Of a stretch of 51,185 bases of DNA, positions 9,294 to 31,556 are shown one piece after another (the first letter of the stretch is position 1; each line of letters starts with the position of its first letter). The notes under the pieces are model-generated. The model did no database searches. It saw only the letters and a list, made by a program, of their open reading frames with translations, and was not told the DNA's origin. Source of the stretch: Oscillospiraceae bacterium (lineage in GTDB: Bacteria > Bacillota > Clostridia > Oscillospirales > Oscillospiraceae); contig JAGHHM010000071.1 in the NCBI GenBank assembly GCA_017887695.1, positions 1 through 51,185 on the forward strand. The letters are read 5' to 3'. The position numbers and the translations under genes are program-made.

Positions 9294-9338
9294 TCTTCCC
9301 TACATATACTGGAAAGACAAAGAAAGGGAGGTCCCGGC

Positions 9339-12349: not shown

Positions 12350-13500
12350 TATTTTCCTGCCTCCTTATGGTTGTCTTTGGGCGGTTCCGCAGCAGAAGGA
12401 CTGCTTTCTCCCTGCGCAGCATGATCTGCGCCGTGGCTGCACTCCTCTTTCTTGTGGTGATCGTGGGGATAGCGGGCAATTCTGGCTACTGTAATAGCCA
12501 CTCCCACCAAGGCGGCGATTGACAAAATCACCTTGATGTAGCCGCTGGTAACAATCATCACGGCACAAAGGCCCAGCACGCCTGCCACCATATACAGCGT
12601 GGCCACAGCCTGCTTCTGATTCATACCCATATCAATGAGCTTGTGATGGGTGTGACTGCGGTCTGCCTTCATGGGATTTTGCCCCTTCAGGATTCGCCGG
12701 GTAAAGGCAGAGGCTGTATCAAAAATGGGAAAGCCCAGGATAATGAAGGGAACAATAAAGGAAATCACCGCATAGAGCTTGAAAAGACCGATCACGGACA
12801 CCGTCGCCAGCATATACCCCAGGAAAGTGGACCCAGTATCCCCCATAAAGATCTTGGCGGGATTGCGGTTATAGGGAATAAAGCCCACACAGGCGCCCAC
12901 CAGGGCCGCCGTAATCACCGCAATCTCAAGATCCCCCATCATCAACGCAATGATCAGCATGGTAAGGGCCCCAATAGTGGACACGCCGTCAGCCAGGCCA
13001 TCCAGACCATCGATGAGGTTAACGCTGTTGGTCACTGCCACAATCCAGATTACTGTGATAGGAACAGCCCAGATCCCAAAGTTCCAGTAAGGAGTATCTG
13101 TAAAGAAGAGAGGGTTTGCAATGGTTTGGATAACGACACCATGCCACACGGCAATCAGAGCGGAAACAATCTGAAGAATAAACTTTACGCCGGCTCCCAG
13201 AGGATGGCCATCATCCACCACACCTACTGCCACAATAATGCAGGCACCGATGAGGATGCCCCGCAGAGAGCGGTCCACGTCGGCAAAGAGAAGAATGCTG
13301 ACCACACAGCCGATGAAAATAGCAAGGCCGCCCATTCGGGGGATGGGGTGGTCGTGCATACGGCGGTTATCCTTAGGCACGTCCACCGCACCCATTTTAT
13401 AGGCCAGCTTTTTGACCAGAGGCGTGGCAATAAAGCTGATGAGCATGGCCACACCCAGAGCCAGAATAACAGGAAGAATATCTTCACGTTCGAACATCAT
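12349..13500 (-). CDS. tagO: glycosyltransferase family 4 (WecA/TagO-type UDP-GlcNAc:undecaprenyl-phosphate GlcNAc-1-P transferase)
   Basis: ORF 12349..13500. Polytopic, with MraY/WecA motifs (NSVNLIDGLDGLA, IFMGDTGS). 1-nt stop/start overlap with wecB. Has a His- and charge-rich C-terminal tail. Confidence 0.88.
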   Translation of the reverse strand: MMFEREDILPVILALGVAMLISFIATPLVKKLAYKMGAVDVPKDNRRMHDHPIPRMGGLAIFIGCVVSILLFADVDRSLRGILIGACIIVAVGVVDDGHPLGAGVKFILQIVSALIAVWHGVVIQTIANPLFFTDTPYWNFGIWAVPITVIWIVAVTNSVNLIDGLDGLADGVSTIGALTMLIIALMMGDLEIAVITAALVGACVGFIPYNRNPAKIFMGDTGSTFLGYMLATVSVIGLFKLYAVISFIVPFIILGFPIFDTASAFTRRILKGQNPMKADRSHTHHKLIDMGMNQKQAVATLYMVAGVLGLCAVMIVTSGYIKVILSIAALVGVAITVARIARYPHDHHKKEECSHGADHAAQGESSPSAAEPPKDNHKEAGK

Positions 13501-13518
13501 GACACCCTTGCCTCCCTG

Positions 13519-14523
13519 TTACCGTGCGACAAAACCGATCTTCTTGTAGACCTTGCGCAGGGTCTTCTCCGCCACATAGGAGGCCCTTTCTGCGCCAGCG
13601 CGGTAGACGCTCTCCAGATAAGCCTTGTCCGACATGATGCGGGAGGCCTCCTCTCGGATGGGACGCAGAGTCTCCACCACAGCCTCGCCCACGGCGGGCT
13701 TGAATTTTCCGTAACCCTGACCGGCAAACTCCGCCTCGATCTCATCGAAGGACTTGCCGGTAACAGCGGCATAAATGGCCATGAGATTGGCCACGCCGGG
13801 CTTATTGACCGGATCATAGCGAACACAGTTTTCCGTGTCACTGTCAGTGACCGCCCGCTTGAACTTACGCTGAATATCCTCAGGCTTCTCCATAAGATAA
13901 ATGGAGCCGGCAGGATCCTTGTCCGACTTGGACATCTTGGAGAGCGGATCGCTCAGGCTCATGATCCGGGCTCCCACCTTGGGAATATAGGGTTCGGGCA
14001 CCTTGAACACATCGCCGTAAATGCCGTTGAACCGCTGGGCCACGTCCCGGGTCAGCTCGCAGTGCTGCTTCTGATCCTCTCCCACAGGAACATAGTCCGG
14101 CTGGTAGAGAAGAATATCCGCCGCCATAAGAGCGGGATAGGTGAAAAGGCCGCCGTTGATGTTGTCCTTATTCTTGGCAGACTTATCCTTAAACTGAGTC
14201 ATCCGGCTGAGTTCACCGAACATGGTGTAGCAGTTGAGGACCCAGCCCAACTCCGCATGCTGGTGGACATGGGATTGAATGAAGAGGGTGTTCTTTTCCG
14301 GATCCAGGCCACAGGCGATGTACTGAGCCAGCTGCTCCAGTGTCCGCCGACGCAGCGCCGCAGGGTCCTGACGGACAGTGATGGAGTGCATATCCGCCAT
14401 AAAATAGTAACAGTCAAACGACTCGGCCCGCTCCGCCCAGTTCTTGATGGCCCCCAGGTAGGAACCCAGGGTTAAATCACCGCTTGGCTGGATGCCGGAG
14501 AGCATGACCTTTTTCTCGTCCAT
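13519..14523 (-). CDS. trpS: tryptophan--tRNA ligase
   Basis: Frame of ORF 13519..14580. ATG at 14523 follows AAAGGAG. KMSKS motif (LSKMSKSD) and a TrpRS-like N-terminus GIQPSGDLTLGSYLGA. Confidence 0.93.
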   Translation of the reverse strand: MDEKKVMLSGIQPSGDLTLGSYLGAIKNWAERAESFDCYYFMADMHSITVRQDPAALRRRTLEQLAQYIACGLDPEKNTLFIQSHVHQHAELGWVLNCYTMFGELSRMTQFKDKSAKNKDNINGGLFTYPALMAADILLYQPDYVPVGEDQKQHCELTRDVAQRFNGIYGDVFKVPEPYIPKVGARIMSLSDPLSKMSKSDKDPAGSIYLMEKPEDIQRKFKRAVTDSDTENCVRYDPVNKPGVANLMAIYAAVTGKSFDEIEAEFAGQGYGKFKPAVGEAVVETLRPIREEASRIMSDKAYLESVYRAGAERASYVAEKTLRKVYKKIGFVAR

Positions 14524-16226: not shown

Positions 16227-16846
16227 ACGCGCTGAAAGAGCAGTTGTCCCTGTTGGGGCAATTCCTGCGGACAGATTTCCGCAAAGTCTTTATCGGCTGT
16301 CTTCTGGCCATGGCTCTTGCCATTGTTCTGGGCTTTGTTGTCGGCAGCCTCTCGCCGGAGACCGTGAACACAGTACTGGAGCAGTTCATGGCTATGGTGG
16401 AGGACGCAGGTATTATGGACAGCGACGGCAATATCTCCCCCTTTGGCCTTCTCACCAATAACTGGTCTGCCATGCTGCTGGCGGTGGTATACGGCTTTGT
16501 TCCCTTCCTGTTCCTCCCCGCCATCAGCATCGTATCCAACGGGTTGCTGATCGGCCTTCTGGCCGCGTGGTACCACGGTAACGGCATATCCATGGGGCTA
16601 TATCTGGCTGGGATCCTGCCCCACGGCATCTTTGAGCTTCCGGCGCTGGTAATTGCCGCAGCCTGCGGTGTATGCCTGTGCCGCAATATGAGCCGGATCG
16701 TTACCAGCAGCCCCCGGCGCGTCCCTATGGTGGAGCTACTTAGCAATCTGCTGCGGGTTCTCCTCTTCCTGGTCATGCCGATGACGGTAGTCGCCGCTTT
16801 CCTGGAGGCGTATGTGACCCCCATCGTTATGGCGCTGTTTCTGTGA
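16223..16846 (+). CDS. spoIIM: stage II sporulation protein M
   Basis: Frame of ORF 16181..16846. ATG at 16223 overlaps the gltX stop (ATGA). Polytopic, with the SpoIIM/DUF95 signature ILPHGIFELPA. Confidence 0.8.
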   Translation: MNALKEQLSLLGQFLRTDFRKVFIGCLLAMALAIVLGFVVGSLSPETVNTVLEQFMAMVEDAGIMDSDGNISPFGLLTNNWSAMLLAVVYGFVPFLFLPAISIVSNGLLIGLLAAWYHGNGISMGLYLAGILPHGIFELPALVIAAACGVCLCRNMSRIVTSSPRRVPMVELLSNLLRVLLFLVMPMTVVAAFLEAYVTPIVMALFL

Positions 16847-16857
16847 GGTCTGCCTTT

Positions 16858-18291
16858 ATGAAAAAAACCTATGTCACCACCATGCCGGATCATGTCGGCG
16901 CCTTTCTCAAAGCCAGCCGTGCCATGGCTGCCCTGGGGCTGAACATTACACGGGTAAGCTACAACAAAGCGATCGACACCCATACCTTATTTATTGAGGC
17001 GGATGGAGAGCCGGAACGGCTGGAGCTGGCCACGGAGGAGCTGCGAAAAATCGGATATCTTCAAAGCGGCGGAACGCACAGTGCGGTCCTTCTGGTGGAA
17101 TTCAAGCTGCGGGATATTCCCGGCGGCGTATCCGGTATTTTGGAGCTCATCGCCAAATACCATTTTAACATCTCCTATCTCAGTTCCCAGACAGACGGCA
17201 GCGGTTGGCAGATGTTCAAAATGGGCCTTTTCGTGGAAAAGCCGGAGCAGTTCTCTCATTTCCTCCACGCGGCTTCCCGGCTGTGTCCGGTCAGGGTTTT
17301 GGATTATGACAAAGGGGAAAAAATCCTGGACAACAGCATTTTCTATATTTCTTTTGCCAGTGAGCTGGCGGAGCAGATGGGACTGGGCCAGGAGAGCCGG
17401 ACAGATCTTATCATCAATGCCAACCTCATCATGCAGATGCTGGATGAGAGGAACAAGCCCTTTCACAAGACTTTTGACTATATCCGTGGTTTTGCAGAAG
17501 CCCTGGCTACCCATCGGGGCGCCGCATTTGCGCCCCGGATCACCGAGTATCCCATGGGAGATGATCTCCATATTACCCTGATTGAGCCTCCCTGCGGCAG
17601 TAATGTCTGTATTCTCCGCCATCAGGGCATGTATCTGTTTATCGATACCGGCTACGCCTGCTACCGGCAGGAGATGCTGTCGCTGCTACGCTCGCTGATT
17701 CCAGACTTTGACAGCTGCCGAAAGGCCGCTTTTGTCACCCATGCAGATGTGGACCACTGCGGTCTTCTGGATCTCTTTTCTACGGTTTATCTCAGCAAAA
17801 AAAGTCAGGATTCCCTGATTATGGAGCGTGAGGTCGGCGGCGGGTTCCGGGAACAGAACCCCCTTCATGCCCCATATATCCGCATCTGCAAAATTCTCAC
17901 TTCCTACCAGCCTCCTCGCCCTGAAATTCTGCAGGTCATCGGCGGAACCTCCGCGCGTTTGTCACAGCCCCTGGAACCCATTGGCAGCTGGTCCTTTGGG
18001 ACACTGGAGTTTGAGGTATACGAGGGACAGGGCGGCCACCTGCCTGGTGAATCGGTACTTGTGGAGCGTCAGCATCACCTGGCCTTTACCGGGGATATTT
18101 TTATCAATATTCACGGCATGACACAGGAGCAGACCTTCTATAACCATTACGCTCCCTATCTTATGACAAGCGTAGATACTGACAGTGCGCTGTGCGCTTT
18201 GGAGCGTCAGTCCCTGCCTGGAATTTTTGGCTCTGGGGATTGGCATGTATTTGGCGGTCACGGCCAGCTGAAAGAGCTCTCTCTCCCCTAA
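16858..18291 (+). CDS. ACT-domain / MBL-fold metallo-hydrolase fusion protein
   Basis: Frame of ORF 16843..18291, with ATG at 16858. The N-terminal ~150 aa look like tandem ACT-like folds. The C-terminal MBL fold has THADVDHCG (a variant of HxHxDH) and a distal GGHG. Confidence 0.7.
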   Translation: MKKTYVTTMPDHVGAFLKASRAMAALGLNITRVSYNKAIDTHTLFIEADGEPERLELATEELRKIGYLQSGGTHSAVLLVEFKLRDIPGGVSGILELIAKYHFNISYLSSQTDGSGWQMFKMGLFVEKPEQFSHFLHAASRLCPVRVLDYDKGEKILDNSIFYISFASELAEQMGLGQESRTDLIINANLIMQMLDERNKPFHKTFDYIRGFAEALATHRGAAFAPRITEYPMGDDLHITLIEPPCGSNVCILRHQGMYLFIDTGYACYRQEMLSLLRSLIPDFDSCRKAAFVTHADVDHCGLLDLFSTVYLSKKSQDSLIMEREVGGGFREQNPLHAPYIRICKILTSYQPPRPEILQVIGGTSARLSQPLEPIGSWSFGTLEFEVYEGQGGHLPGESVLVERQHHLAFTGDIFINIHGMTQEQTFYNHYAPYLMTSVDTDSALCALERQSLPGIFGSGDWHVFGGHGQLKELSLP

Positions 18292-20734: not shown

Positions 20735-21133
20735 ATGCCTACATTGGACGAACTCAATCAGCGTTTCCGGCACGACTGCTTTGCCACTGCCGTTGTCGGC
20801 GCAAGTATCCTGGAAGCAGAACCGAGCCATGCTGTATGTCTGCTGCCGCTTCGCCCCGCTCACATGAATGCTAATAACACCCCTATGGGCGGCGCTATCT
20901 TTACTTTGGCCGATTTTGCGTTTGCCGTAGCCGCTAACGGCTTTAGCGAACGAGTCACTGTAAGCCAACACGCCTCCATTACCTTCCTGGCTCCCCCAAA
21001 AGGCACACAGCTGCGAGCGGAAGCAGCCTGCCTGAAGGCAGGACGTACCCTGTGCCTGTATGAGGTGAGAATTACTGACGATCTGGGCACACAGGTGGCC
21101 CATGTTACAGTCAACGGCTTTACCATGGGATGA
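20735..21133 (+). CDS. PaaI-family hotdog-fold acyl-CoA thioesterase
   Basis: ORF 20735..21133. The 132-aa size and the region NANNTPMGGAIFTLADFAFAVA are typical of PaaI/YdiI-type thioesterases. Confidence 0.8.
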   Translation: MPTLDELNQRFRHDCFATAVVGASILEAEPSHAVCLLPLRPAHMNANNTPMGGAIFTLADFAFAVAANGFSERVTVSQHASITFLAPPKGTQLRAEAACLKAGRTLCLYEVRITDDLGTQVAHVTVNGFTMG

Positions 21134-21159
21134 CGCCCTTCTTCGCAAGCCAACGGAAA

Positions 21160-21190
21160 GGCCGGCCCTATTAGGGCCGGCCCTATTTCT
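21160..21190 (+). terminator. intrinsic terminator after the thioesterase gene
   Basis: Stem GGCCGGCCCT / AGGGCCGGCC with a 3-nt loop, followed by CTATTTCTT. Confidence 0.7.
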
Positions 21191-21489
21191 TGCGGCTTAC
21201 CAAATAATGGTATCCATAATATCATGACTTTTACATACGACTTTTTCTGTAAAGCTTTTCCCCTTTTCTGTTTCTGTGCCGCAATCACTTATAGCCATGA
21301 TTGTTAGTGTCAGCAATATGCTCGCCGCTGCTTTCGTAATGACGCCCTTCCTTTGAGTGCTTTGCAATAAAGGTATCTCCGGGGCCCCTTAAATATCGGA
21401 ACAGCCCAGCATACAGGTCAATCTACACTTCCAAAGATCATCTCACTAAGAAGGCCCTAAAATTTTTCATTATTTTTTGAAAATTTCTG

Positions 21490-21518
21490 TTGACTTTAGT
21501 TGTTAAAAGTGGTAAAGT
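21490..21518 (+). promoter_or_regulatory. sigma-A promoter of T-box leader 1
   Basis: TTGACT (21490-21495), 17-nt spacer, TGgTAAAGT (TAAAGT at 21513-21518). Same architecture as the promoter at 25112-25140. Confidence 0.65.
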
Positions 21519-21524
21519 TCTCGC

Positions 21525-21809
21525 TGTAATCATGTTACCAATGCGATGAGGAAAACCAGTAGGTTCCCTTCCACCCCTTCAGAGAGCCGCCGGGTGGTGC
21601 AAGGCGGCGGGGCCGGGATCTGAATACCTTTCCGAGCAGCGGACCGAACCCGGGGGCCACTGGCCTGCCGTTGTAGTAGGCTCCGCCGGGTGCGCCCGAT
21701 ACAGCGCGGGAGCATGTCAGTGCTCCGCGAGGCCGCAAAAGCGGTAAATTGAGGTGGTACCACGGGAAATTCTCGTCCTCTGTGCAGTAAATGCGCAGAG
21801 GATTTTTTT
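21525..21809 (+). promoter_or_regulatory. T-box riboswitch leader 1, specifier read as UAC (Tyr)
   Basis: Stem I K-turn GCGAUGAG...CCGAGC, AGUA S-turn, AGAGAG bay, distal loop GGUGCAA. Specifier loop GAA-UAC-C (UAC at 21625-21627). T-box AAAUUGAGGUGGUACCACGGG (21746-21766). Terminator stem 21776-21786/21792-21802 plus U7, overlapping the 3' strand of the antiterminator. Confidence 0.88.
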
Positions 21810-21844
21810 GTGGCCCAATGAAGCAATACAGGAGGATGTACGGT

Positions 21845-23482
21845 ATGGTCATTACAGAATTATTGGAAAGAAACGCCAGGCTCTACAGCTCTGACACCGC
21901 CCTGGTGGAAATCAATCCCTCGGAGGAACGTGACAAGGCAGTTACTTGGCGTGAAGCTAGCCTTATTGAAAGCGCCCAGCCGGACGCACCTTACCGCCGT
22001 GAAATCAGTTGGCGTGATTTTGATCGACGGGCCAACCGCTTTGCTAACCTTCTTCTCAGCCGCAGCCTGGAGCGGGGTACTAAGGTAGGAATTCTGCTGA
22101 TGAACTGCCTGGAGTGGCTGCCCATCTATTTTGGCATCCTCAAAGCGGGCTGTGTGGCGGTGCCTCTGAATTTCCGCTACTCCAGCGATGAAATCAAATA
22201 CTGCCTGGAACTGGCAGACGTGGAAGTACTGGTGTTCGGGCCGGAGTTTGTGGGGCGGATGGACACAATTGCCCATAACCTGCCCCAGGTTAAGCAGATG
22301 TTCTTTGTAGGCCGGGATAAGCCTGCCTACGCCGAGGATTGCTGCAAGCTCATGGGCTTTTGCTCCTCCAGCGCACCGCCGGTAGCCCTGGAGGAAACCG
22401 ACTATGCCGCCATCTACTTCTCCTCCGGCACCACCGGCTTCCCCAAGGCTATTCTGCACAACCACTGTGCCCTCATCAACTCCTGCCGCACAGAACAGAA
22501 ACACCACGGCCAGACTCGGGAGGATGTATTCCTCTGTATTCCTCCCCTCTATCACACCGGCGCCAAGATGCACTGGTTCGGAAGCCTGATCTCCGGCAGC
22601 AAGGCGGTACTGCTGCGGGGCGTGAAGCCGGAGTGGATCCTCCGGGCCGTCACCGAAGAAAAGTGTACCATCGTATGGCTGCTGGTGCCCTGGGCTCAAG
22701 ATCTGCTGGATGCCATTGAGGCAGGCAAGGTTGATCTCAACAACTACCTTCTTGACCAGTGGCGCCTGATGCATATCGGCGCCCAGCCCGTACCCCCCAG
22801 CCTGATCCATCGTTGGCAGAAGCTCTTCCCCCACCATGCCTACGACACCAACTACGGCCTGAGCGAATCCATTGGTCCCGGCTGTGTACACCTGGGCGTG
22901 GAAAATATCCGCAAGGTCGGGGCCATCGGCAAGCCTGGTTACCTTTGGCAAGCCCGGATTGTCGACGACAAGGGCCGTGAAGTGCCTCAGGGCGATATCG
23001 GTGAGCTGATCGTCAGCGGCCCCGGTGTTATGCTCTGCTACTATAAGAATCCGGAGGCCACCGCGGAGATCCTGAAAAATGGTTGGCTCTACACCGGCGA
23101 TATGGCCCGGATGGACGAGGAAGGCTTTATCTATCTGGTAGACCGGAAGAAAGACGTGGTCATCTCCGGCGGCGAGAACCTCTATCCTGTCCAGATCGAG
23201 GACTTCCTGCGCAAGTACGACAAGATCAAGGATGTGGCCGTCATTGGCCTTCCCGACCCCCGGCTGGGCGAAATTGCCGCAGCCATTATCGAAATCAAAG
23301 ACGGCCTAACCTGTACTGCCGAAGAGATCAACCAGTTCTGTAAAGAGCTGCCCCGGTATAAGCGGCCCCGGAAGATCATCTTCGACAAGGTGCCTCGCAA
23401 TCCCACCGGTAAAATTGAAAAGCCGGTGCTGCGGGAGAAATACTGCCACGGCCGGCTGGTGGAAGCCCAGATCAACAGCTGA
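21845..23482 (+). CDS. AMP-dependent acyl-CoA synthetase/ligase (class I adenylate-forming enzyme)
   Basis: Frame of ORF 21791..23482. ATG at 21845 lies 9 nt after AGGAGG. Motifs SSGTTGFPKAILHNH, YGLSES, YTGDMARMDEEGFIYLVDRKKD and PTGKIEK. Substrate unknown. Confidence 0.88.
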   Translation: MVITELLERNARLYSSDTALVEINPSEERDKAVTWREASLIESAQPDAPYRREISWRDFDRRANRFANLLLSRSLERGTKVGILLMNCLEWLPIYFGILKAGCVAVPLNFRYSSDEIKYCLELADVEVLVFGPEFVGRMDTIAHNLPQVKQMFFVGRDKPAYAEDCCKLMGFCSSSAPPVALEETDYAAIYFSSGTTGFPKAILHNHCALINSCRTEQKHHGQTREDVFLCIPPLYHTGAKMHWFGSLISGSKAVLLRGVKPEWILRAVTEEKCTIVWLLVPWAQDLLDAIEAGKVDLNNYLLDQWRLMHIGAQPVPPSLIHRWQKLFPHHAYDTNYGLSESIGPGCVHLGVENIRKVGAIGKPGYLWQARIVDDKGREVPQGDIGELIVSGPGVMLCYYKNPEATAEILKNGWLYTGDMARMDEEGFIYLVDRKKDVVISGGENLYPVQIEDFLRKYDKIKDVAVIGLPDPRLGEIAAAIIEIKDGLTCTAEEINQFCKELPRYKRPRKIIFDKVPRNPTGKIEKPVLREKYCHGRLVEAQINS

Positions 23483-23517
23483 CGGTTTCCACGATTCTAC
23501 TGCTAAGGAGTTTTTTC

Positions 23518-25101
23518 ATGGGTGATATGACCATCAAGCTCGTAATGCTGTTTTTATTCTTTGCCGTTATGGTGGGCATTGGGCTCTATTGCCGCCGCCA
23601 TGCCTCCGACGTTACCGGGTTTGTGCTGGGCGGGCGGTCTGTTGGCCCCTGGCTCACTGCCTTTGCCTACGGCACCAGCTATTTTTCCGCCGTAGTCTTT
23701 GTGGGCTACGCCGGACAGTTTGGCTGGAAATACGGCATTGCGGCTACATGGGCCGGTATCGGCAATGCCCTTTTGGGTTCTCTGCTGGCCTGGGCGGTAC
23801 TGGGCCGCCGGACCCGGGTTATGACCCAGCATCTGGACAGCGCCACCATGCCGGAATTTTTCGGTCGGCGCTTCAACAGCCGCGCATTGAAGCTTACCGC
23901 CTCCGTTATTATTTTTATTTTTCTCATCCCCTACACTGCCTCTCTTTACAACGGCCTTTCCCGGCTCTTTGCCATGGCCTTTGACATCGACTACGCTATC
24001 TGCGTCATCGTTATGGCGGTGCTCACCGGAGTGTATGTTATCGCTGGCGGCTACATGGCCACCGCCATCAACGATTTTATCCAGGGTATTATCATGATCG
24101 TTGGCATCATCGCAGTGATCGGCGCAGTACTGGCTAACCACGGCGGCTTCCTCAGCGCTCTGGAAGGGCTGGCGCGAATCGAGGACGAGACAGTCTCTTC
24201 CGCCCCCGGCGTGTTTGCCTCCTTCTTTGGCCCGGATCCCCTGGGCCTTCTGGGGGTGGTGCTGCTGACCAGCCTGGGCACCTGGGGCCTTCCCCAGATG
24301 GTGCAAAAGTTCTACGCCATCAAAAGCGAAAAATCCATCAACACCGGTATGGTGATTTCCACCCTTTTTGCGGCTGTTGTGGCAGGCGGCTGCTACTTTT
24401 TGGGCGGCTTTGGAAGGCTCTATACCGGAAAGGTGGATGTAGTTGCCGAAGGGTATGACGCCATCATTCCCACTATGCTCTCAGATCTCTCCTCTTTCCT
24501 CATCGCGGTAGTGGTGATCCTGGTGCTGTCCGCCTCCATGTCTACCCTCAGCTCCCTGGTGCTGGCCTCCAGCTCCACCCTAACCCTTGATTTCATCAAG
24601 GACAATATGATCCGGGACATGGATGAAAAGCGGCAGGTTCGCTGGATCCGAGGTCTTGTGGTAGTCTTTATCGCTATCTCCGTAGTGCTGGCCATTATCC
24701 AGTACCGCTCCAGCGTCACCTTTATCGCCCAGCTCATGGGCATCAGCTGGGGCGCCCTGGCTGGCGCTTTCCTGGCGCCCTTCCTGTACGGCCTGTACTG
24801 GAAGCGTACGACCAAGGCCGCCTGCTGGGTCAGCTTCCTTTTCTCCACGATTGTTATGCTTTCCAATATTTTTGCCGGAGAATACTTCCCTTCCCTGCTG
24901 CGCTCCCCTATCAATGCAGGCGCTTTCTGTATGCTGGCAGGCCTGGTGATCGTACCGCTGGTGAGCCTTATAACAAAAGCTCCGGCGGCAGATCATGTGG
25001 ATCAAATTTTCTCCTGCTATGAACGCACTATCACAGTCACCGTAAAAGATTCCATCGGCAATCCGGAGAAACGCCCCCGGGCCTCCGGCAAGAAAAAATG
25101 A
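23518..25101 (+). CDS. sodium:solute symporter (SSS) family transporter
   Basis: ORF 23518..25101 after AAGGAG. About 13 TM helices. The N-terminal region GFVLGGRSVGPWLTAFAYGTSYFSAV is typical of PanF/PutP-like SSS proteins. Confidence 0.85.
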   Translation: MGDMTIKLVMLFLFFAVMVGIGLYCRRHASDVTGFVLGGRSVGPWLTAFAYGTSYFSAVVFVGYAGQFGWKYGIAATWAGIGNALLGSLLAWAVLGRRTRVMTQHLDSATMPEFFGRRFNSRALKLTASVIIFIFLIPYTASLYNGLSRLFAMAFDIDYAICVIVMAVLTGVYVIAGGYMATAINDFIQGIIMIVGIIAVIGAVLANHGGFLSALEGLARIEDETVSSAPGVFASFFGPDPLGLLGVVLLTSLGTWGLPQMVQKFYAIKSEKSINTGMVISTLFAAVVAGGCYFLGGFGRLYTGKVDVVAEGYDAIIPTMLSDLSSFLIAVVVILVLSASMSTLSSLVLASSSTLTLDFIKDNMIRDMDEKRQVRWIRGLVVVFIAISVVLAIIQYRSSVTFIAQLMGISWGALAGAFLAPFLYGLYWKRTTKAACWVSFLFSTIVMLSNIFAGEYFPSLLRSPINAGAFCMLAGLVIVPLVSLITKAPAADHVDQIFSCYERTITVTVKDSIGNPEKRPRASGKKK

Positions 25102-25111
25102 GAATTACCCA

Positions 25112-25140
25112 TTGACGGCAGCGGATAAAAGTGATAAAGT
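25112..25140 (+). promoter_or_regulatory. sigma-A promoter of T-box leader 2
   Basis: TTGACG (25112-25117), 17-nt spacer, TGaTAAAGT (TAAAGT at 25135-25140). Starts only 11 nt after the symporter stop, with no terminator in between. Confidence 0.65.
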
Positions 25141-25146
25141 GATTCC

Positions 25147-25416
25147 ATTGTGGATACCTGAAACGCAATGACGGAACCAAGTAGCGTGCCAATTGCTCCC
25201 TTCAGAGACCTGCCGGGCGGTGCGAGGCAGGAGAAGCAAGGCCCGTGAATTCCTTCCTGAGCGGCCTGCCGAACTCCAGTAAGCAGCGACGGGAGACGCC
25301 CGATACAGCGTCAGGGATATGTTCGTATCCCATGAGGCCGCATACGCGGTAAATTGAGGTGGTACCACGGGAAATTCCCCGTCCTCTGCAAGCTTTATTG
25401 CAGAGGACGGTTTTTT
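25147..25416 (+). promoter_or_regulatory. T-box riboswitch leader 2, specifier read as UUC (Phe)
   Basis: Stem I GCAAUGAC...CUGAGC, AGUA, AGAGA bay, distal loop GGUGCGA. Specifier loop GAA-UUC-C (UUC at 25250-25252). Same T-box sequence as leader 1, AAAUUGAGGUGGUACCACGGG (25351-25371). Terminator stem 25379-25390/25398-25410 plus U6. Confidence 0.88.
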
Positions 25417-25486
25417 ATTTTCCAAGGCTGTCAAAACAAAAGAAATCACCACCGTTTCCGGACGGTATGGATAAGGAGGATACCCT

Positions 25487-27229
25487 ATGAAAACCCTGAT
25501 GCTTGGCAACGAAGCAGTTGCCAGAGGCCTCTATGAGGCCGGCTGCTCCTTCGTCTCCAGCTACCCCGGCACCCCCAGCACGGAGATTACCGAGTGCGCC
25601 GCCAAATATCCTGAGATCTACGCCGAATGGGCCCCCAACGAGAAGGTGGCTATGGAGGCCGCCTTTGGCGCATGCCTTGCCGGCAAGCGCAGCTTCTGCG
25701 GCATGAAGCATGTGGGCCTTAATGTGGCCGCTGATCCCCTTTTCACCATCTCCTATACCGGCGTCAACGCCGGCATGATCATCGCTGTGGCAGATGACGC
25801 GGGCATGCACAGCTCCCAGAACGAGCAGGACTCCCGCCATTATGCCATGGCTGCCAAGATCCCCATGCTGGAGCCTGCCGACAGCGCAGAAGGCCTTCAG
25901 TTTGCCAAACTTGCTTATGAGCTCTCTGAAAAATTTGATACCCCGGTGCTGCTGAAGATGTGCACCCGGGTGGCCCACTCCCAGAGCGTGGTGGAGCCCG
26001 GAGAGCGGGTGGAGAGCCCTGCCAAGCCCTATGAGAAGAACGGTCCCAAGTACATCATGATGCCCGGCAACGCCAAGCGCCGCCACCCCGTAGTGGAGGA
26101 GCGCACCAACGCCCTCATCGCCTATGCGGAGACCACTCCCCTCAACCGGGTGGAAGATGGCTCCGACCATAAAATCGGCATTATTACCTCTTCCACCAGC
26201 TACCAGTACGTCAAGGAGGTCTGCGGCGACCGCTTCCCGGTGCTGAAGCTGGGCATGATCTGGCCCATGCCGGAAAAGCTCATCCGTGACTTTGCTGCCA
26301 AGGTGGATCTCCTGGTGGTGGTAGAGGAGCTGGACGGCTTCATCGAGGCCCACTGTCGAAACCTGGGCCTGGCCGTCAGCGGCAAGGACTACTTCTCCTG
26401 CATCGACGAACTGAGTCAGAACATCGTGGCAGAGAAGCTGGGGATCTCCCATGAGAACGGCACTGCCCTTCAGGAGAACATCCCCGCCCGGCCCCCGGTC
26501 ATGTGCGCCGGGTGCCCCCACCGTGGTCTCTTCTACACCTTGGCCAAGAACAAGCTCACCGTTCTGGGAGACATTGGCTGCTATACTCTGGGCGCTGTGC
26601 CCCCCCTGGCAGCCATCGACACCACCATCTGCATGGGTGCCTCTGTCTCCGGCCTTCACGGCTTCAACAAGGCTAGCGGTGGTGAAACTGAGGGCCGGTC
26701 TGTGGCAGTGATCGGCGACTCCACCTTCATGCATTCCGGCGTCACCGGCCTCATCAACATTGCCTACAACGAGTCCAATTCCACGGTCATTATCCTGGAC
26801 AACTCTATCACCGGCATGACCGGCCACCAGCAGAACCCCACCACCGGCTTCAACCTCAAGGGCGATCCTTGCACCAAGATCGACCTGGAGAGCCTGTGCC
26901 GCAGCGTGGGCATCAAGCGTGTCCGGGTGGTGGATCCCTACAACCTGGCGGAGTGCGACCAGGCGGTAAAGGAGGAGCTGGCGGCAGCGGAGCCTTCCGT
27001 GATCATCTCCCGCCGGCCCTGCGCCCTTCTCAAATATGTTAAGCACAAGGCGCCTCTGGTGGCCAACCATGACAAGTGTGTAGGCTGCAAGTCCTGCATG
27101 CGCATCGGCTGCCCCGCCATCTCCATTGTGGATGGTAAGGCGGTCATCGACAATACCCTGTGCGTGGGCTGCGGCGTATGTCAGCAGCTGTGCAAGTTCG
27201 ACGCTCTGGAAAGCGGCAAGGAGGCCTGA
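25487..27229 (+). CDS. iorA: indolepyruvate (arylpyruvate):ferredoxin oxidoreductase, alpha subunit
   Basis: ORF 25487..27229 after AAGGAGG. IorA-type N-terminus MLGNEAVARGLYEAG..SSYPGTPSTEI, a TPP-binding region, and two C-terminal ferredoxin-type clusters (CVGCKSCMRIGCP, CVGCGVCQQLC). Confidence 0.92.
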   Translation: MKTLMLGNEAVARGLYEAGCSFVSSYPGTPSTEITECAAKYPEIYAEWAPNEKVAMEAAFGACLAGKRSFCGMKHVGLNVAADPLFTISYTGVNAGMIIAVADDAGMHSSQNEQDSRHYAMAAKIPMLEPADSAEGLQFAKLAYELSEKFDTPVLLKMCTRVAHSQSVVEPGERVESPAKPYEKNGPKYIMMPGNAKRRHPVVEERTNALIAYAETTPLNRVEDGSDHKIGIITSSTSYQYVKEVCGDRFPVLKLGMIWPMPEKLIRDFAAKVDLLVVVEELDGFIEAHCRNLGLAVSGKDYFSCIDELSQNIVAEKLGISHENGTALQENIPARPPVMCAGCPHRGLFYTLAKNKLTVLGDIGCYTLGAVPPLAAIDTTICMGASVSGLHGFNKASGGETEGRSVAVIGDSTFMHSGVTGLINIAYNESNSTVIILDNSITGMTGHQQNPTTGFNLKGDPCTKIDLESLCRSVGIKRVRVVDPYNLAECDQAVKEELAAAEPSVIISRRPCALLKYVKHKAPLVANHDKCVGCKSCMRIGCPAISIVDGKAVIDNTLCVGCGVCQQLCKFDALESGKEA

Positions 27230-27234
27230 GAGAT

Positions 27235-27807
27235 ATGGAAACGAAGAACATTATGATCGTCGGCGTAGGCGGCCAAGGCACCCTCCTGGCCAGTAAGCTC
27301 CTGGGCCGTCTGCTGCTGGGCAAGGGCTATGACGTAAAGGTCAGCGAAGTCCATGGCATGAGTCAGCGGGGCGGCAGCGTGGTCACCTATGTCCGCTACG
27401 GCAGCAAGGTCTACTCCCCCATTATTGATAAGGGGGAGGCCGATATCATCCTCTCCTTTGAGCTGCTGGAAGCTGCCCGGTGGACGGAGTACCTCAAGCC
27501 CGGCGGAAAGATCATCACCAACACCCAGCAGGTCAACCCCATGCCCGTTATTACCGGCGCAGCCCAGTACCCCGACGGCCTGGTGGAGAAAATGCACTCC
27601 GCAGGCATGGATGTAGATGCCATTGACGCCCTCTCCCTGGCGGAGAAGGCAGGTTCCGCCAAGGCGGTAAACCTGGTGCTGATGGGCCGTCTCGCCAAAT
27701 GGTTTGATTTCTCTGACGAGGAATGGATGGCCGCTATCGAGCAGAGCGTCCCTGCCAAGTTCCTGGAGATGAACAAAAAGGCCTTTGCCCTGGGCCGGGA
27801 GGCATAA
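27235..27807 (+). CDS. iorB: indolepyruvate:ferredoxin oxidoreductase, beta subunit
   Basis: Frame of ORF 27160..27807. ATG at 27235 lies 5 nt after the iorA stop. IMIVGVGGQGTLLASK motif. 190 aa. Confidence 0.9.
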   Translation: METKNIMIVGVGGQGTLLASKLLGRLLLGKGYDVKVSEVHGMSQRGGSVVTYVRYGSKVYSPIIDKGEADIILSFELLEAARWTEYLKPGGKIITNTQQVNPMPVITGAAQYPDGLVEKMHSAGMDVDAIDALSLAEKAGSAKAVNLVLMGRLAKWFDFSDEEWMAAIEQSVPAKFLEMNKKAFALGREA

Positions 27808-27808
27808 C

Positions 27809-28174
27809 ATGTCCGGCTTTCTGCCTGTGGCCTTTGGGGGCGCTGTGGGGGCCTGCGGCCGCTACGCGGTGAGCCTTCTCCCATGGACCGGAAGTTTCCC
27901 TCTGGCCACCTTGTTTACCAATTTTCTGGGCGCGCTTCTCATCGGCTTTATCGCCGGACTCTCCGGGCGCCTGCCGGAGCAGTGGACCTTGTTCTGGAAA
28001 ACCGGAGTTTGCGGCGGCTTTACCACTTTTTCAACTTTCTCCCTGGAAAGCATGACCCTTCTGCGGGATGGACGATATGCTGCAGGAGCATTATACATCC
28101 TCCTCAGCGTTCTCCTCTGCCTTGGAGGCGTTTTTCTGGGACAGCGCATGAGTCAAATGATTCCCCGCACCTGA
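27809..28174 (+). CDS. crcB: fluoride ion channel CrcB/FluC
   Basis: Frame of ORF 27785..28174. ATG at 27809 lies 1 nt after the iorB stop. Motifs GGAVGACGRY, TNFLGALLIGF and GVCGGFTTFSTFS. Confidence 0.88.
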   Translation: MSGFLPVAFGGAVGACGRYAVSLLPWTGSFPLATLFTNFLGALLIGFIAGLSGRLPEQWTLFWKTGVCGGFTTFSTFSLESMTLLRDGRYAAGALYILLSVLLCLGGVFLGQRMSQMIPRT

Positions 28175-28202
28175 TTGGCGGGATGAAAGGAACATACAAC
28201 CT

Positions 28203-29501
28203 ATGGAACGTTACTACCAGCCTGAAATTGAGTGCGCCAGCCGGGAACAGATCCTGGCCTGGCAGAACGAGCGCCTCGTTAAGCAGGTGCAGCATGTGTG
28301 GGACTCCGTCCCCTACTACCGCAAGAAAATGGAAGAGAAGGGCGTCACTCCTGCTGACATCCAAAGCGTGGCCGACCTCCACAAGCTGCCCTTCCTTACG
28401 AAGGACGATCTGCGGGAGGCCTACCCCTACGGCCTGCTGGCCAAGCCCCTGAAGGACTGCGTCCGAATCCAGTCTACCTCCGGTACTACCGGACGGCGGG
28501 TGGTGGCTTTTTACACCCAGCACGACATTGACCTGTGGGAGGACTGCTGCGCCCGTGCCATTATGGCTGCCGGCGGCACCAATGAGGATGTGTGTCACGT
28601 TTCCTATGGCTACGGCCTCTTCACTGGTGGCCCCGGCCTTAACGGCGGCAGCCACAAGGTGGGGTGCCTGACCCTGCCTATGTCCTCCGGCAACACCGAC
28701 CGGCAGCTGCAATTCATGGTGGATCTGGGTTCCACTATTCTTTGCTGCACCCCCTCTTACGCCGCCTACCTGGCGGAAAGCATCCATGAGAGAGGCCTCC
28801 GGGACAAAATTAAGCTCAAGGCCGGCATCTTCGGCGCTGAAGCCTGGAGTGAGGAAATGCGCCGGGACATCGAAGCAAAGCTGGGCATCAAGGCCTATGA
28901 TATCTACGGTCTTACGGAAACCAGCGGTCCGGGCGTGGCCTTTGAATGCAGCGAACAGACCGGTATGCACATCAATGAGGACCACTTCATTGCTGAGATC
29001 ATCGACCCTGACACCGGCGAGGTCCTGCCGGAAGGCAGCAAGGGCGAACTGGTATTTACCTCCATTACCAAGGAGGCCTTCCCTCTCCTGCGCTACCGGA
29101 CCCGGGATATCTGCATTCTCTCCCGTAAAAAGTGTTCCTGCGGCCGCACTTTCGTAAAGATGTGCAAGCCTATGGGCCGTAGCGATGATATGCTCATCGT
29201 CAAGGGTGTGAACGTGTTCCCCTCCCAGATCGAAACCGTTCTTCTGGAGCAGGGCTATCCCGCCAACTATCAGATCATCGTTGACCGCGTCAACAACAGC
29301 GATACCCTGGAGGTCATGGTGGAAATGACCCCGGAGAACTTCTCCGACTCCCTGGCCAAGATCACCGATATGGAGAAATCCCTGGTGGCTGCATTGAAGG
29401 CCATGCTGGGCATCTATGCCAAGGTCCGCCTGGTGGCCCCCAAGTCCATTGCCCGCAGCGAAGGCAAGGCCGTGCGTGTTATCGACAAGCGCAAGATTTG
29501 A
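28203..29501 (+). CDS. paaK: phenylacetate--CoA ligase family protein
   Basis: ORF 28203..29501. PaaK-type N-terminus (YYQPEIECASREQILAWQNERL), the STSGTTGRRV motif, and a size of 432 aa. Confidence 0.9.
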   Translation: MERYYQPEIECASREQILAWQNERLVKQVQHVWDSVPYYRKKMEEKGVTPADIQSVADLHKLPFLTKDDLREAYPYGLLAKPLKDCVRIQSTSGTTGRRVVAFYTQHDIDLWEDCCARAIMAAGGTNEDVCHVSYGYGLFTGGPGLNGGSHKVGCLTLPMSSGNTDRQLQFMVDLGSTILCCTPSYAAYLAESIHERGLRDKIKLKAGIFGAEAWSEEMRRDIEAKLGIKAYDIYGLTETSGPGVAFECSEQTGMHINEDHFIAEIIDPDTGEVLPEGSKGELVFTSITKEAFPLLRYRTRDICILSRKKCSCGRTFVKMCKPMGRSDDMLIVKGVNVFPSQIETVLLEQGYPANYQIIVDRVNNSDTLEVMVEMTPENFSDSLAKITDMEKSLVAALKAMLGIYAKVRLVAPKSIARSEGKAVRVIDKRKI

Positions 29502-29518
29502 GAAGGGAGCGAACTGAC

Positions 29519-29950
29519 ATGACCATTCATCAGATCTCTGTATTTCTGGAAAACCGGGCTGGCCAGCTGGCCGAGATCACCGGTATCCTGGCCCAGAAGG
29601 GAATTGACCTTCGTGCCATTAACATCGCTGAGACCAGCGACTACGGCGTTCTCCGCCTGATCGCTGACAAGCCCCAAGAGGCGGCCGCTACCCTACTGGA
29701 GCACGGCTTCATCCTGTCCATGACCCCGGTGGTGGCGGTGAGTGTTCCCGACGTACCCGGCGGCCTGGCCAAGGTGCTGGACGTGCTGGCCAATGAGAAC
29801 ATCGACGTGGAGTATATGTACTCCGTATTCGGACAGGTAAATGGCCTGGCCCATATGGTGTTCCGTGTTGGGGACACAGAAAAGCTTCTTACCGTCCTGA
29901 AATCCAACGGTGTAGAGCCTATCTCCAGCGAGAACCTTGGCATCCGATAA
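29519..29950 (+). CDS. ACT domain-containing protein (tandem ACT, amino-acid binding)
   Basis: Frame of ORF 29498..29950. ATG at 29519 follows GAAGGGAG. ISVFLENRAGQLAEITGILAQKGIDLRAINI is a classic ACT fold. This type is commonly found next to paaK. Confidence 0.85.
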   Translation: MTIHQISVFLENRAGQLAEITGILAQKGIDLRAINIAETSDYGVLRLIADKPQEAAATLLEHGFILSMTPVVAVSVPDVPGGLAKVLDVLANENIDVEYMYSVFGQVNGLAHMVFRVGDTEKLLTVLKSNGVEPISSENLGIR

Positions 29951-30010
29951 GCAGCAGGAAATATCCATTCTTTATAGAAGCCAAGCGCTCCGTTAAAGGG
30001 GGAAACCGAC

Positions 30011-30172
30011 ATGCTCATCATAGCAGCCGCCATTTGCTCCTGTGTCGCCTATTTAACCGGCGCAGCGATCGAAAATGAGCCGGGCGTCAATTTGCCTGGC
30101 TTCGGGATCGCCCTGACCATCATTACAATGGGGATATTCATTATGGTTCAGATCAGGATGAGCAAAAAGTGA
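30011..30172 (+). CDS. candidate 53-aa two-TM small membrane protein
   Basis: Below the ORF-track cut-off. ATG at 30011 follows AAAGGGGGA. Sequence MLIIAAAICSCVAYLTGAAIENEPGVNLPGFGIALTIITMGIFIMVQIRMSKK. Confidence 0.4.
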   Translation: MLIIAAAICSCVAYLTGAAIENEPGVNLPGFGIALTIITMGIFIMVQIRMSKK

Positions 30173-30243
30173 CAAATCCAACGGCCTCCCCATCTATGCT
30201 TACCCTGACCTTGAGAAGACTATCAATCGTATTGTCATCTCCA

Positions 30244-30276
30244 ACGCAAAACACCGTTTTGCGTAAAAGTTCTTTT
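30244..30276 (+). terminator. weak terminator-like hairpin after the ior-paaK operon
   Basis: 9-bp stem ACGCAAAAC / GTTTTGCGT. The T-run is displaced (AAAAGTTCTTTTT). Confidence 0.4.
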
Positions 30277-30332
30277 TGATTCTTTTTCTTTCAAGAAAAA
30301 GAATGAATACCCATGAGAAAGGACAAATCACC

Positions 30333-31499
30333 ATGCAGGAAATGAGCAGAAAGAACAAAATGTTCACTGATTCCGTTATTCGCCGCATGACCCGCATCGC
30401 CATTGACTGCGGCGCCATCAACCTGGCCCAGGGCTTCCCTGATTTTGATCCCCCCAAGGCCATGCTGGATCGGTTGGCGGAAGTGAGCTATGAGGGACCT
30501 CACCAGTATCCCATCACCATGGGCGCCCCCAATTTCCGGGAGGCCCTGGCCCGTAAGTGCGGCCGTTTCATGGGCCGCAAGCTGGATCCCAACACGGAAA
30601 TGGTGGTGACCATCGGCTCCACAGAGGCTATGGTGGATACTATCTTTGCCCTTACCAATCCCGGCGACAAAATCATCATGTTCTCCCCCTACTTTGAGAA
30701 CTACCGGGCCCAGGCCATCATGGCCGATTGCGAGCCCATCTTCGTTCCCCTGGTACCCCCCACCTTTAACTTTGACCCCAACGTCCTGGAGGACGCCTTC
30801 AAGCAGGGCGCCAAGGCTATCCTTATTTGCAACCCCTCCAATCCCAGCGGCAAAGTGTTCACCTATGACGAGCTCAAACTCATTGCTGACCTGTGCATCA
30901 AGTACGACGTCTATGCCATCATGGACGAGGTCTATGAGCACATCATCTACGACGGCCACAAGCACGTCTATATGAACAGCCTGCCTGGTATGTGGGAGCG
31001 TACCGTCAGCTGCTCCAGCCTCTCCAAGACCTATTCCATCACTGGCTGGCGTTTGGGTTATGCCATTGCCCCCCAGCCCATCATGGAGCGTATCAAGCAG
31101 TACCACGACTTCAACACCGTGGGTGCCCCTGCTCCTTTGATGGAGGCCGCCGTGGTAGGCCTGGATATGCCTGACAGCTACTACGAGGAGTTTGGCGCCC
31201 ACTACGCCCACATGAAGAAAATCTTTACCGACGGCCTAAAGAGCATCGGTATCCCCTTCACTGATCCTCAGGGCGCCTACTTCGTCCTGGCCAACATCGG
31301 GCCTTACATGAAACCCGGCCAGAGCGACGTCCAATTCTGTGAGGAATTGGCCCACAAGGTCGGCGTAGCCTGTGTGCCTGGCACCTCCTTCTTCATGGAA
31401 AATGTCAACGACATTGTCCGCGTCCACTTTGCCAAGAAGGACGAGACTCTCTACGAGGCCCTCAACCGTCTGGCGGACATTAAGAAGAAAATGGCGTAA
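30333..31499 (+). CDS. class I/II PLP-dependent aminotransferase
   Basis: Frame of ORF 30276..31499. ATG at 30333 follows GAAAGGA (alternative ATG at 30303). MFTDSVIRRMTRIA..INLAQGFPDFDPP is typical of YbdL/kynurenine-type aminotransferases. SLSKTYSITGWRLGY contains the PLP lysine. Confidence 0.88.
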   Translation: MQEMSRKNKMFTDSVIRRMTRIAIDCGAINLAQGFPDFDPPKAMLDRLAEVSYEGPHQYPITMGAPNFREALARKCGRFMGRKLDPNTEMVVTIGSTEAMVDTIFALTNPGDKIIMFSPYFENYRAQAIMADCEPIFVPLVPPTFNFDPNVLEDAFKQGAKAILICNPSNPSGKVFTYDELKLIADLCIKYDVYAIMDEVYEHIIYDGHKHVYMNSLPGMWERTVSCSSLSKTYSITGWRLGYAIAPQPIMERIKQYHDFNTVGAPAPLMEAAVVGLDMPDSYYEEFGAHYAHMKKIFTDGLKSIGIPFTDPQGAYFVLANIGPYMKPGQSDVQFCEELAHKVGVACVPGTSFFMENVNDIVRVHFAKKDETLYEALNRLADIKKKMA

Positions 31500-31527: not shown

Positions 31528-31556
31528 AAGCCGGGCTGGCATTGCCAGCCCGGCTT
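31528..31556. terminator. bidirectional intrinsic terminator
   Basis: 13-bp stem AAGCCGGGCTGGC / GCCAGCCCGGCTT with a 3-nt loop, between convergent genes. Confidence 0.8.

Follow-up and report, generated by a model that had tools for sequence, protein, structure and literature searches.

Serial Tyr and Phe T-box leaders at an ior/paaK gene cluster of an Oscillospiraceae bacterium

Architecture of the locus

The 51,185-nt stretch of DNA analyzed here (the window) comes from an Oscillospiraceae bacterium (GCA_017887695.1, contig JAGHHM010000071.1). On its + strand, at 20735-31499, lies a cluster built around iorA and iorB, the genes for an indolepyruvate:ferredoxin oxidoreductase (IOR), and paaK, the gene for a PaaK-type arylacetate-CoA ligase. 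Two T-box leaders, one with a Tyr and one with a Phe specifier codon, precede the two operons of the cluster. The entire window was scanned against Rfam at gathering thresholds, which for the T-box family RF00230 is 93 bits; proteins were assigned with Pfam and with NCBIfam curated and equivalog cut-offs, and PDB comparisons supplied solved relatives. The features, in order along the window, are as follows.

20735-21133, + strand: hotdog-fold thioesterase, PaaI-like (PF03061 and TIGR00369 above cut-offs, the latter 49 versus 36.6)
21160-21182, + strand: intrinsic terminator after the thioesterase gene (10-bp stem, 9 GC pairs, T-rich tail)
21490-21518, + strand: promoter P1, TTGACT-17-TAAAGT with a TG-extended -10 (promoter scan)
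21537-21783, + strand: T-box leader 1 (RF00230, 115.5 bits versus threshold 93); specifier UAC (Tyr) at 21625-21627
21775-21810, + strand: terminator hairpin 1 (21775-21803) and T7 run, overlapping the antiterminator 3' arm (terminator scan)
21845-23482, + strand: AMP-forming acyl-CoA ligase, 545 aa, candidate arylacetate-CoA ligase (PF00501 and PF13193)
23518-25101, + strand: sodium:solute symporter (SSF, PutP/PanF-like), candidate aryl-acid importer (PF00474)
25112-25140, + strand: promoter P2, TTGACG-17-TAAAGT with a TG-extended -10 (promoter scan)
25159-25389, + strand: T-box leader 2 (RF00230, 100.7 bits versus threshold 93); specifier UUC (Phe) at 25250-25252
25379-25416, + strand: terminator hairpin 2 (25379-25410) and T6 run, overlapping the antiterminator 3' arm (terminator scan)
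25487-27229, + strand: iorA, indolepyruvate/arylpyruvate:ferredoxin oxidoreductase alpha subunit (TIGR03336, 695 versus 650.9 bits)
27235-27807, + strand: iorB, IOR beta subunit (NF005325, 282 versus 230 bits)
27809-28174, + strand: crcB fluoride-channel homologue, between iorB and paaK (TIGR00494, 89.7 versus 80.45 bits)
28203-29501, + strand: PaaK-type arylacetate-CoA ligase, AMP-forming (best family TIGR02155; PDB 2Y27 and 4R1L)
29519-29950, + strand: ACT-domain-pair protein, 143 aa, candidate amino-acid-binding regulator (PF19571; PDB 2F06, E = 8e-30)
30011-30172, + strand: 53-aa hydrophobic open reading frame (ORF), lineage-specific, with a Shine-Dalgarno site and two hydrophobic segments
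30333-31499, + strand: class I/II aminotransferase, KAT/YbdL/aromatic type (PF00155)
31528-31556, + strand: strong intrinsic terminator closing the second unit, 3' of the aminotransferase (13-bp stem, 10 GC pairs)

Leader 1 gates the first ligase and the symporter, and leader 2 gates iorA-iorB-crcB-paaK-ACT. The small membrane ORF and the aminotransferase, read from their placement in the sequence, probably also belong to the leader-2 unit, of which the aminotransferase is probably the last gene. P2 begins 11 nt past the symporter stop codon (25101), with no terminator between them. The thioesterase stands outside the T-box-gated units because it is followed by its own terminator. The gene order and protein families that the original prediction gave for this block were borne out by Pfam and NCBIfam; four starts were revised (iorB to 27235, crcB to 27809, ACT to 29519, and the aminotransferase to 30333). 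A ligase start at ATG 21791, which is also present on the ORF list, was discarded: it lies within the terminator of leader 1, and the start is ATG 21845, behind an AGGAGG Shine-Dalgarno sequence. Independent gene calls on four other contigs agree in protein length for every gene between the ligase and the small ORF, both included; the aminotransferase falls outside those loci. Two intergenic gaps of the window have no counterpart in its closest relatives: 21183-21489 (~300 nt, from the thioesterase terminator to P1) and 29951-30332 (382 nt, from the ACT gene to the aminotransferase), the matching gaps in relatives being ~35-70 nt.

Two T-box leaders with Tyr and Phe specifiers

T-box leaders allow read-through only when the cognate tRNA is uncharged. 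Exactly two cis-regulatory Rfam matches were retrieved from the window, namely the two leaders, both assigned to RF00230, both on the + strand, and both full-length (model positions 1-219). In the covariance-model alignment the specifier slot reads GAA-UAC-C at 21622-21628 and GAA-UUC-C at 25247-25253. The specifier comprises the three bases 3' of the S-turn GAA, one base before the lower Stem I helix, and its column is common to all 22 leaders from the related loci described below. Each leader of the window has a Stem I specifier loop with an S-turn (AGUA...GAA) and the codon in canonical position, as well as the conserved T-box sequence AAAUUGAGGUGGUACCACG and an antiterminator with the UGGN bulge. 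The two leaders with UAC and UUC specifiers that had been proposed from inspection are thus accepted by RF00230, and the covariance-model check suggested at that time places both codons in the specifier slot. The base directly 3' of the specifier is C at 21628 and 25253 and in 19 of the 22 related-locus leaders; A occupies this position in L033 and in the L066 group.

Folding gave -25.8 kcal/mol for the terminator and -8.6 kcal/mol for the antiterminator of leader 1, and -28.7 versus -11.2 kcal/mol for leader 2. The terminators are therefore 17 kcal/mol more stable than the antiterminators, which carry a 7-nt UGGUACC bulge. As predicted folds, these are a textbook T-box arrangement, in which a weak antiterminator would need the tRNA 3' end to win. 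By model score and alignment, the leaders are ordinary RF00230 members.

Conservation across related loci

A scan with IorA, using one genome per GTDB species, provided 80 related loci (L001-L080; 75-87% identity). Most carry Oscillospiraceae, Acutalibacteraceae, or unclassified Clostridia labels, some are of Lachnospiraceae type, and the closest are Pseudoflavonifractor. One gene order is widely shared among them: ligase-(SSF)-IorA-IorB-PaaK-ACT-(aminotransferase). T-boxes were sought with an nhmmer profile, Rfam, and alignment, and 38 of the 80 loci were informative. A strict regular expression for the T-box sequence was abandoned after it missed the leaders of L015, L031, L037, and L043, all four of which the nhmmer profile recovered. 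Weak T-box matches near other ior loci were likewise set aside, as they belong to neighboring tyrS, trpE, thrS, and pheST genes and not to the cluster.

A T-box precedes a co-directional ligase in 17 of the 38 informative loci, with UAC (Tyr) as the specifier in 10 and UUC (Phe) in 7. The leaders orthologous to leader 1, together with two sets placed closer to iorA, are as follows.

L001, L002, L006, L019, L020, L033, L035, L044, L050, L057: Tyr leaders orthologous to leader 1
L001, L002: second, iorA-proximal leader with UUC (Phe), in the dual layout seen in the window
L048, L066, L071: divergent leader with UUC-A (Phe), before a TrpR-like YerC/YecD gene and iorA

The divergent leaders share only 47-52% identity with the two of the window. 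Before the conserved ligase or iorA, all 22 related leaders (24 with the two of the window) specify Phe or Tyr, and none Trp. T-boxes thus stand at the same place in other Oscillospirales species and are confined to these two amino acids, which is what the comparison of orthologous clusters proposed with the original prediction was meant to reveal. Beneath the specifier, the helix varies by in-register compensatory changes (GAAA/UUUC, GGAA/UUCC, GAAG/CUUC, and GAAC/GUUC), which fix the codon position independently of the covariance model. In pheST, tyrS, and trpE T-boxes of the same lineages, the aligned specifier position reads UUC, UAC, and UGG, respectively.

Neighbor joining places the Phe leaders next to iorA (window, L001, and L002) together with the Tyr leaders that precede the ligase in those same genomes, and with L035, which indicates that the second leader arose by local duplication of leader and promoter. 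Sister leaders can differ in specificity, one being Tyr and the other Phe, as in L011 versus L020 and L057 versus L053. As read from these alignments, one A/U change would be enough to switch the amino acid that is sensed. Either target is evidently tolerated, which would be expected of an operon that provides both Phe and Tyr.

Strain-level variation was assessed on four metagenome contigs whose IorA is identical to that of the window; contigs with an identical IorA occur in 66 blocks of the assembly collection. The four contigs differ from the window by 39-254 substitutions over the 7.7-kb locus, the top count (L084) being too high because a 1-nt indel puts the comparison out of register, and by 0-1 substitutions in the 309-nt second leader. 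These figures are consistent with constraint on the second leader, although a sample of four is too small to prove it.

The promoter TTGACTTTAGCGATTAAAAGTGnTAAAGT, spacer included, is conserved in 22 loci ahead of the cluster, whether a T-box is present or not, and is nearly absent elsewhere in the 1.3 Mb of fetched sequence. Copies lie, for example, at L001 7587, L005 8244, L009 8228, L034 6068, and L036 6230. Its conserved spacer, TTGACTTTAGCGATTAAAAGTG, may hold a candidate operator (ACTTT-N8-AAAGT) for a protein regulator.

Some clusters that lack a T-box retain parts of the leader region. In L021 (8187-8298), L026 (~5080-5182), L009 (8228-8350), L003 (9847-9974), and L004 (1911-2036), the promoter and a T-box-type terminator hairpin (GTCCTCTGC...GCAGAGG plus a T-run) are kept, and the entire tRNA-binding body is lost. 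By their sequence, these hairpin-only leaders look like decayed T-boxes. A search of T-box-less relatives for another riboswitch gave nothing relevant (nine loci at the Rfam gathering score; L003 7000-10100 at E<=1), and reading their leaders revealed no leader peptide enriched in codons for Phe or Tyr.

Further signs of aromatic amino-acid metabolism surround related clusters. Of the 80 loci, 17 have a TrpR-family gene (YerC/YecD-like, PF01371) immediately upstream of iorA (L066 9654-9965, L071 9657-10004, L048 ~5460-5771, and 14 further loci). Many of these loci have a FadD-like ligase upstream on the opposite strand, and three have a Phe T-box in front. The TrpR-family gene is a hint of a second, protein-based tie between the cluster and aromatic amino-acid status. 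In two loci, the ior cluster is directly followed by T-box-controlled aromatic genes: tyrS (UAC) at L034 14275-14614 and a trp operon (UGG) at L080 14041-14533, which shows local clustering of aromatic-supply functions. In L022, a T-box at 6938-7174 (97.8 bits) has the specifier AUC-A (Ile) and precedes an ORF at 7217-9484; iorA starts at 9562. This ORF encodes a 755-aa HTH-cupin-AMP-ligase fusion 78 nt upstream of iorA and is not the conserved ligase. It may represent a parallel case in which a T-box gates the activation of an acid, here a branched-chain one, or just an adjacent unit.

Enzymes of the cluster

Both IOR subunits exceed the cut-offs of curated equivalog models, which confirms at the level of sequence families that IorAB is an indolepyruvate:ferredoxin oxidoreductase. 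The PaaK-type ligase falls below the TIGR02155 equivalog cut-off (493.8 versus 646.3 bits) and matches solved PaaK structures at E = 1e-120 (PDB 2Y27) and 1e-118 (PDB 4R1L). On these scores it is filed as a PaaK-type arylacetate ligase, not as the enzyme of the aerobic Paa pathway. The ACT-pair gene follows paaK in nearly all related loci. Among the PDB matches of the aminotransferase are kynurenine aminotransferases, YbdL, and the aromatic aminotransferase of Pyrococcus (1DJU). Its gene follows ACT in L001-L006, L011, L020, L035, L050, L053, L057, and L059, and directly follows iorB in L021 and L055.

The first ligase adjoins ior in most of the 80 related loci. The symporter falls under every NCBIfam equivalog cut-off and is placed between ligase and iorA in ~25 related loci. 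Among the flanking genes, the thioesterase is found upstream of the cluster in L001, L002, L006, L008, L017, L018, L034, and L036. It scores below the PaaI equivalog TIGR02286 (67.7 bits versus a cut-off of 118.9), with only the general hotdog domain passing. Of the PaaI-type thioesterase that had been placed in the block, then, a hotdog thioesterase adjoining the cluster stands; the PaaI assignment and membership in the T-box-gated set do not.

The 53-aa ORF has no homologue among L001-L080, and for that reason it was considered spurious until strain polymorphism overturned this view. Differences among strains fall at the third codon position in 6/8, 5/6, and 2/3 cases, leaving the protein almost unchanged. 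Because the polymorphisms are mostly at third codon positions, the ORF is probably a real small membrane-protein gene.

The crcB gene sits inside the Phe-gated operon, and the Rfam scan found no match to the fluoride riboswitch RF01734 anywhere in the window. At the same insertion point, crcB is also present in L012 (~12378-12680) and L071 (~12375-12680), with 71-73% DNA identity, whereas the nearest relatives, L001 and L002, have no crcB between iorB and paaK. Upstream of the locus, the window also contains a gene for a protein of 482 aa (16843-18291), which has an ACT domain and matches metallo-beta-lactamases weakly, and a 610-aa ORF without a Pfam match (12643-14475).

Proposed function and direction

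We consider it likely that the locus is an aryl-acid assimilation operon set, induced by aromatic amino-acid starvation through two transcription-attenuating T-boxes. Each leader would be transcribed from its own extended -10 promoter. While tRNA-Tyr (leader 1) or tRNA-Phe (leader 2) is mostly charged, the stable terminator would form and transcription would end before the genes. An uncharged cognate tRNA would pair through its anticodon with the specifier and through its free 3' NCCA with the UGGU bulge of the antiterminator; the antiterminator stabilized in this way would preclude the terminator, allowing RNA polymerase to read through, a starvation response expected from the T-box class. 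Arylacetates such as phenylacetate and 4-hydroxyphenylacetate would be imported, with the symporter as the putative carrier, and the two ligases would convert these presumed substrates into CoA thioesters at the expense of ATP to AMP. IorAB would then use reduced ferredoxin and CO2 to carboxylate these thioesters reductively to phenylpyruvate or 4-hydroxyphenylpyruvate, and the aminotransferase, if co-transcribed, would convert these arylpyruvates into Phe or Tyr. The ACT-pair protein may act as a feedback sensor.

The direction assigned to IorAB is inferred from regulation and partner enzymes only. Flux toward Phe and Tyr is favored because it would make no sense for a T-box to induce destruction of the very amino acid that its tRNA lacks. 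Activation, IOR, and transamination are all encoded within this one cluster. Two features of its content fit synthesis: the presence of two AMP-forming ligases with neither a phosphotransacylase/kinase pair nor an ADP-forming ligase, and an aminotransferase that is co-operonic in many species. The RF00230 matches, the restriction of specifiers to Phe and Tyr, and the ligase and aminotransferase content thus lend support to the direction originally predicted, toward Phe/Tyr synthesis.

Several observations weigh against this assignment. IOR is reversible. A purine is usually conserved directly 3' of the specifier codon in T-boxes, and most leaders of this clade have C there. Gating is also optional: no T-box or other Rfam element was found in 21 of the 38 informative clusters, including that of Pseudoflavonifractor capillosus ATCC 29799, and the T-box near iorA in L022 is of the Ile type. 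The substrate of the first ligase cannot be read from its sequence, as its NCBIfam and PDB relatives are generic (FadD, feruloyl, and malonyl-CoA synthetase), and the symporter is nearer to the PutP/PanF proline/pantothenate carriers than to monocarboxylate carriers. In the dual layout, a transcript that has passed the Tyr leader next encounters the Phe terminator, so that starvation for Tyr only would raise the ligase and symporter but not IorAB, which is awkward unless basal IOR suffices. Finally, the IOR of Bacteroides thetaiotaomicron has been linked to phenylacetate production, as cited in PMC13285125.

Alternatively, the cluster may be split in function, with only iorAB-paaK-ACT-aminotransferase serving salvage, the Tyr-gated ligase and symporter forming an ordinary transporter operon for Tyr or a precursor such as 4-hydroxyphenylpyruvate, and the ligase acting on some other acid. 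Transporters of the amino acid that is sensed are often under T-box control (Wels 2008, PMC2494555), and the best-scoring models of the symporter, the generic character of the ligase, and the failure of the Tyr leader alone to open IorAB in the dual layout all agree with such a split. SSF, however, is not among the T-box-linked transporter families tabulated in that survey (PMC2494555), and the symporter is optional where the ligase is nearly universal. In 17 species the ligase lies directly upstream of iorA, in one unit behind a single T-box, in some of them with no symporter. That single leader is Phe-specific as often as Tyr-specific, at odds with a carrier for Tyr only. This is the main rival explanation, and we judge it unlikely.

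A catabolic or bidirectional role, in which IorAB would follow its usual annotation and mainly oxidize arylpyruvates to arylacetyl-CoA and the T-boxes would tune, for example, CoA-ester recycling or the arylpyruvate pool, appears quite improbable. It draws on the reversibility of IOR, on its catabolic role in Pyrococcus, on the link to phenylacetate formation in B. thetaiotaomicron (in the account given by PMC13285125), and on the adjoining hotdog thioesterase, which could release arylacetate. Against it, a breakdown of Phe and Tyr precursors induced by uncharged tRNA-Phe or tRNA-Tyr would deepen the starvation, and known T-box regulons raise amino-acid supply (Wels 2008, PMC2494555). The ATP-yielding partners of an oxidative route are missing, two ATP-consuming AMP-forming ligases being present instead, and the thioesterase lies beyond the gated units, behind its own terminator.

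That the leaders are decaying relics which no longer switch, acting as constitutive terminators or being read through while control resides at the conserved promoter/operator, is very improbable: five relatives (L021, L026, L009, L003, and L004) have indeed lost the T-box body while the promoter, and in some cases the terminator hairpin, persists, conservation of the promoter spacer is unusually high, and C replaces the purine after the specifier, but both leaders of the window exceed a stringent Rfam threshold with every conserved element intact, ~20 species keep leaders with compensatory stem changes and only Phe or Tyr specifiers, and the second leader has at most one substitution in 309 nt against 39-254 over 7.7 kb (in the small sample of four contigs, with the L084 total inflated by an indel).

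Comparison with known systems

The leaders share with class I transcriptional T-boxes (RF00230, of the Bacillus subtilis tyrS and pheS type) the K-turn, the Stem I S-turn specifier loop, the distal AGAGA/GGUG platform, Stem II and the IIA/B region, and the T-box sequence with its UGGN bulge and competing terminator. Their specifiers, UAC and UUC, are those of the tyrS and pheST leaders of related genomes. Unlike T-boxes of synthetase genes, they stand before a ligase/transporter pair and an ior-paaK operon, have C instead of a purine after the codon in most of the clade, and occur as two leaders of different specificity in series within one cluster.

In Firmicutes, aromatic supply under T-box control was described for the trp operon, tyrosine biosynthesis, phenylalanine hydroxylase of the B. 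cereus group, and NSS/NhaC transporters (Wels 2008, PMC2494555); ior, paaK, and SSF are absent from that survey. The logic is the same, in that lack of charging of an aromatic tRNA switches on supply of its amino acid, but here supply would come from reductive carboxylation of arylacetates and not from the shikimate route, hydroxylation, or import. The chemistry itself has precedent in the IOR-dependent aryl-acid route to aromatic amino acids of Methanococcus maripaludis (Porat 2004, as cited in PMC4162585) and in rumen bacteria, where Phe is made from phenylacetate (PMC7356843). The proposed steps are shared, from aryl acid to aryl-CoA, to arylpyruvate by IOR in reverse, and to the amino acid. 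The present case differs in being a bacterial (Firmicute) cluster under riboswitch control, in which one locus combines two dedicated AMP-forming ligases with genes for a symporter, an ACT-pair protein, and an aminotransferase.

The closest gene set is iorAB-paaK(-ACT) of Bacteroides, which has the same core of IorA, IorB, a PaaK-type AMP-forming ligase (PDB 4R1L), and an ACT pair (PDB 2F06). A biosynthetic role was proposed for the Bacteroides IOR since its partner ligase is AMP-forming (PMC13285125). The cluster of the window has an extra ligase, a symporter, and an aminotransferase. No T-box or RNA leader is described for the Bacteroides cluster in PMC13285125, a comparison made by description, with no Bacteroides locus scanned. 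Characterized oxidative arylpyruvate pathways, by contrast, couple the oxidoreductase to a phosphotransacylase/kinase pair or an ADP-forming ligase and thereby gain ATP (PMC13285125). Such a pathway in Clostridium scatologenes (HpdDEFG-HpdJ-HpdK) also employs a 2-oxoacid:ferredoxin oxidoreductase on arylpyruvate/arylacetyl-CoA, but the enzyme is a VOR-type one of four subunits, phosphotransacylase and kinase gain ATP, and expression is induced by tyrosine (PMC13285125). The cluster described here has an IOR-type enzyme and ATP-spending ligases, and its induction would be expected when Tyr or Phe runs short.

The iorAB-paaK-ACT core is a known cluster, its reductive-carboxylation chemistry is classical, and the mechanism is not new. 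What appear to be new are the link of T-boxes to ior, with its evidence on direction, and the serial Tyr/Phe dual-leader layout. A literature search found no relevant paper joining T-boxes with indolepyruvate, phenylacetate, or ferredoxin oxidoreductase, although an earlier mention in regulon tables is possible. The suggestion that a dual-specifier T-box architecture on ior/paaK was undescribed is therefore upheld within the reach of that search, whereas the idea of a biosynthetic IOR paired with an AMP-forming ligase had already been voiced for Bacteroides (PMC13285125) and demonstrated in M. maripaludis (Porat 2004, as cited in PMC4162585).

Implications

T-box control provides independent regulatory evidence for a cluster running toward Phe and Tyr in these Oscillospirales. 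It ties genes to a reductive-carboxylation physiology known from rumen bacteria since the 1960s, making a long-standing question testable, and two leaders that differ by one specifier base offer an experimental handle. The T-box regulon would extend to a salvage pathway with two serial leaders of different specificity, and the frequent UAC/UUC flips between sister species illustrate how a single base change retargets the sensor.

A broader reading, which we advance only tentatively and regard as doubtful in its full form, is that ior/paaK in a sizeable group of gut and rumen Oscillospirales mainly consumes cross-fed arylacetate instead of producing it and constitutes the principal, starvation-induced route to Phe and Tyr. 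Under this reading, in genomes with the dual layout the Tyr-gated ligase and symporter would serve 4-hydroxyphenylacetate and the Phe-gated PaaK would serve phenylacetate, and the shikimate route would be absent or secondary in the genomes of this group. Gut bacteria make phenylacetate, 4-hydroxyphenylacetate, and indoleacetate, which feed into metabolites of relevance to the host, among them phenylacetylglutamine and p-cresol, and ior genes are generally counted as producers of arylacetates. If the consumer reading is true, metagenomic ior counts would give the wrong sign for phenylacetate flux in these taxa. The T-box link may reverse how ior genes from these taxa are read in gut metagenomics.

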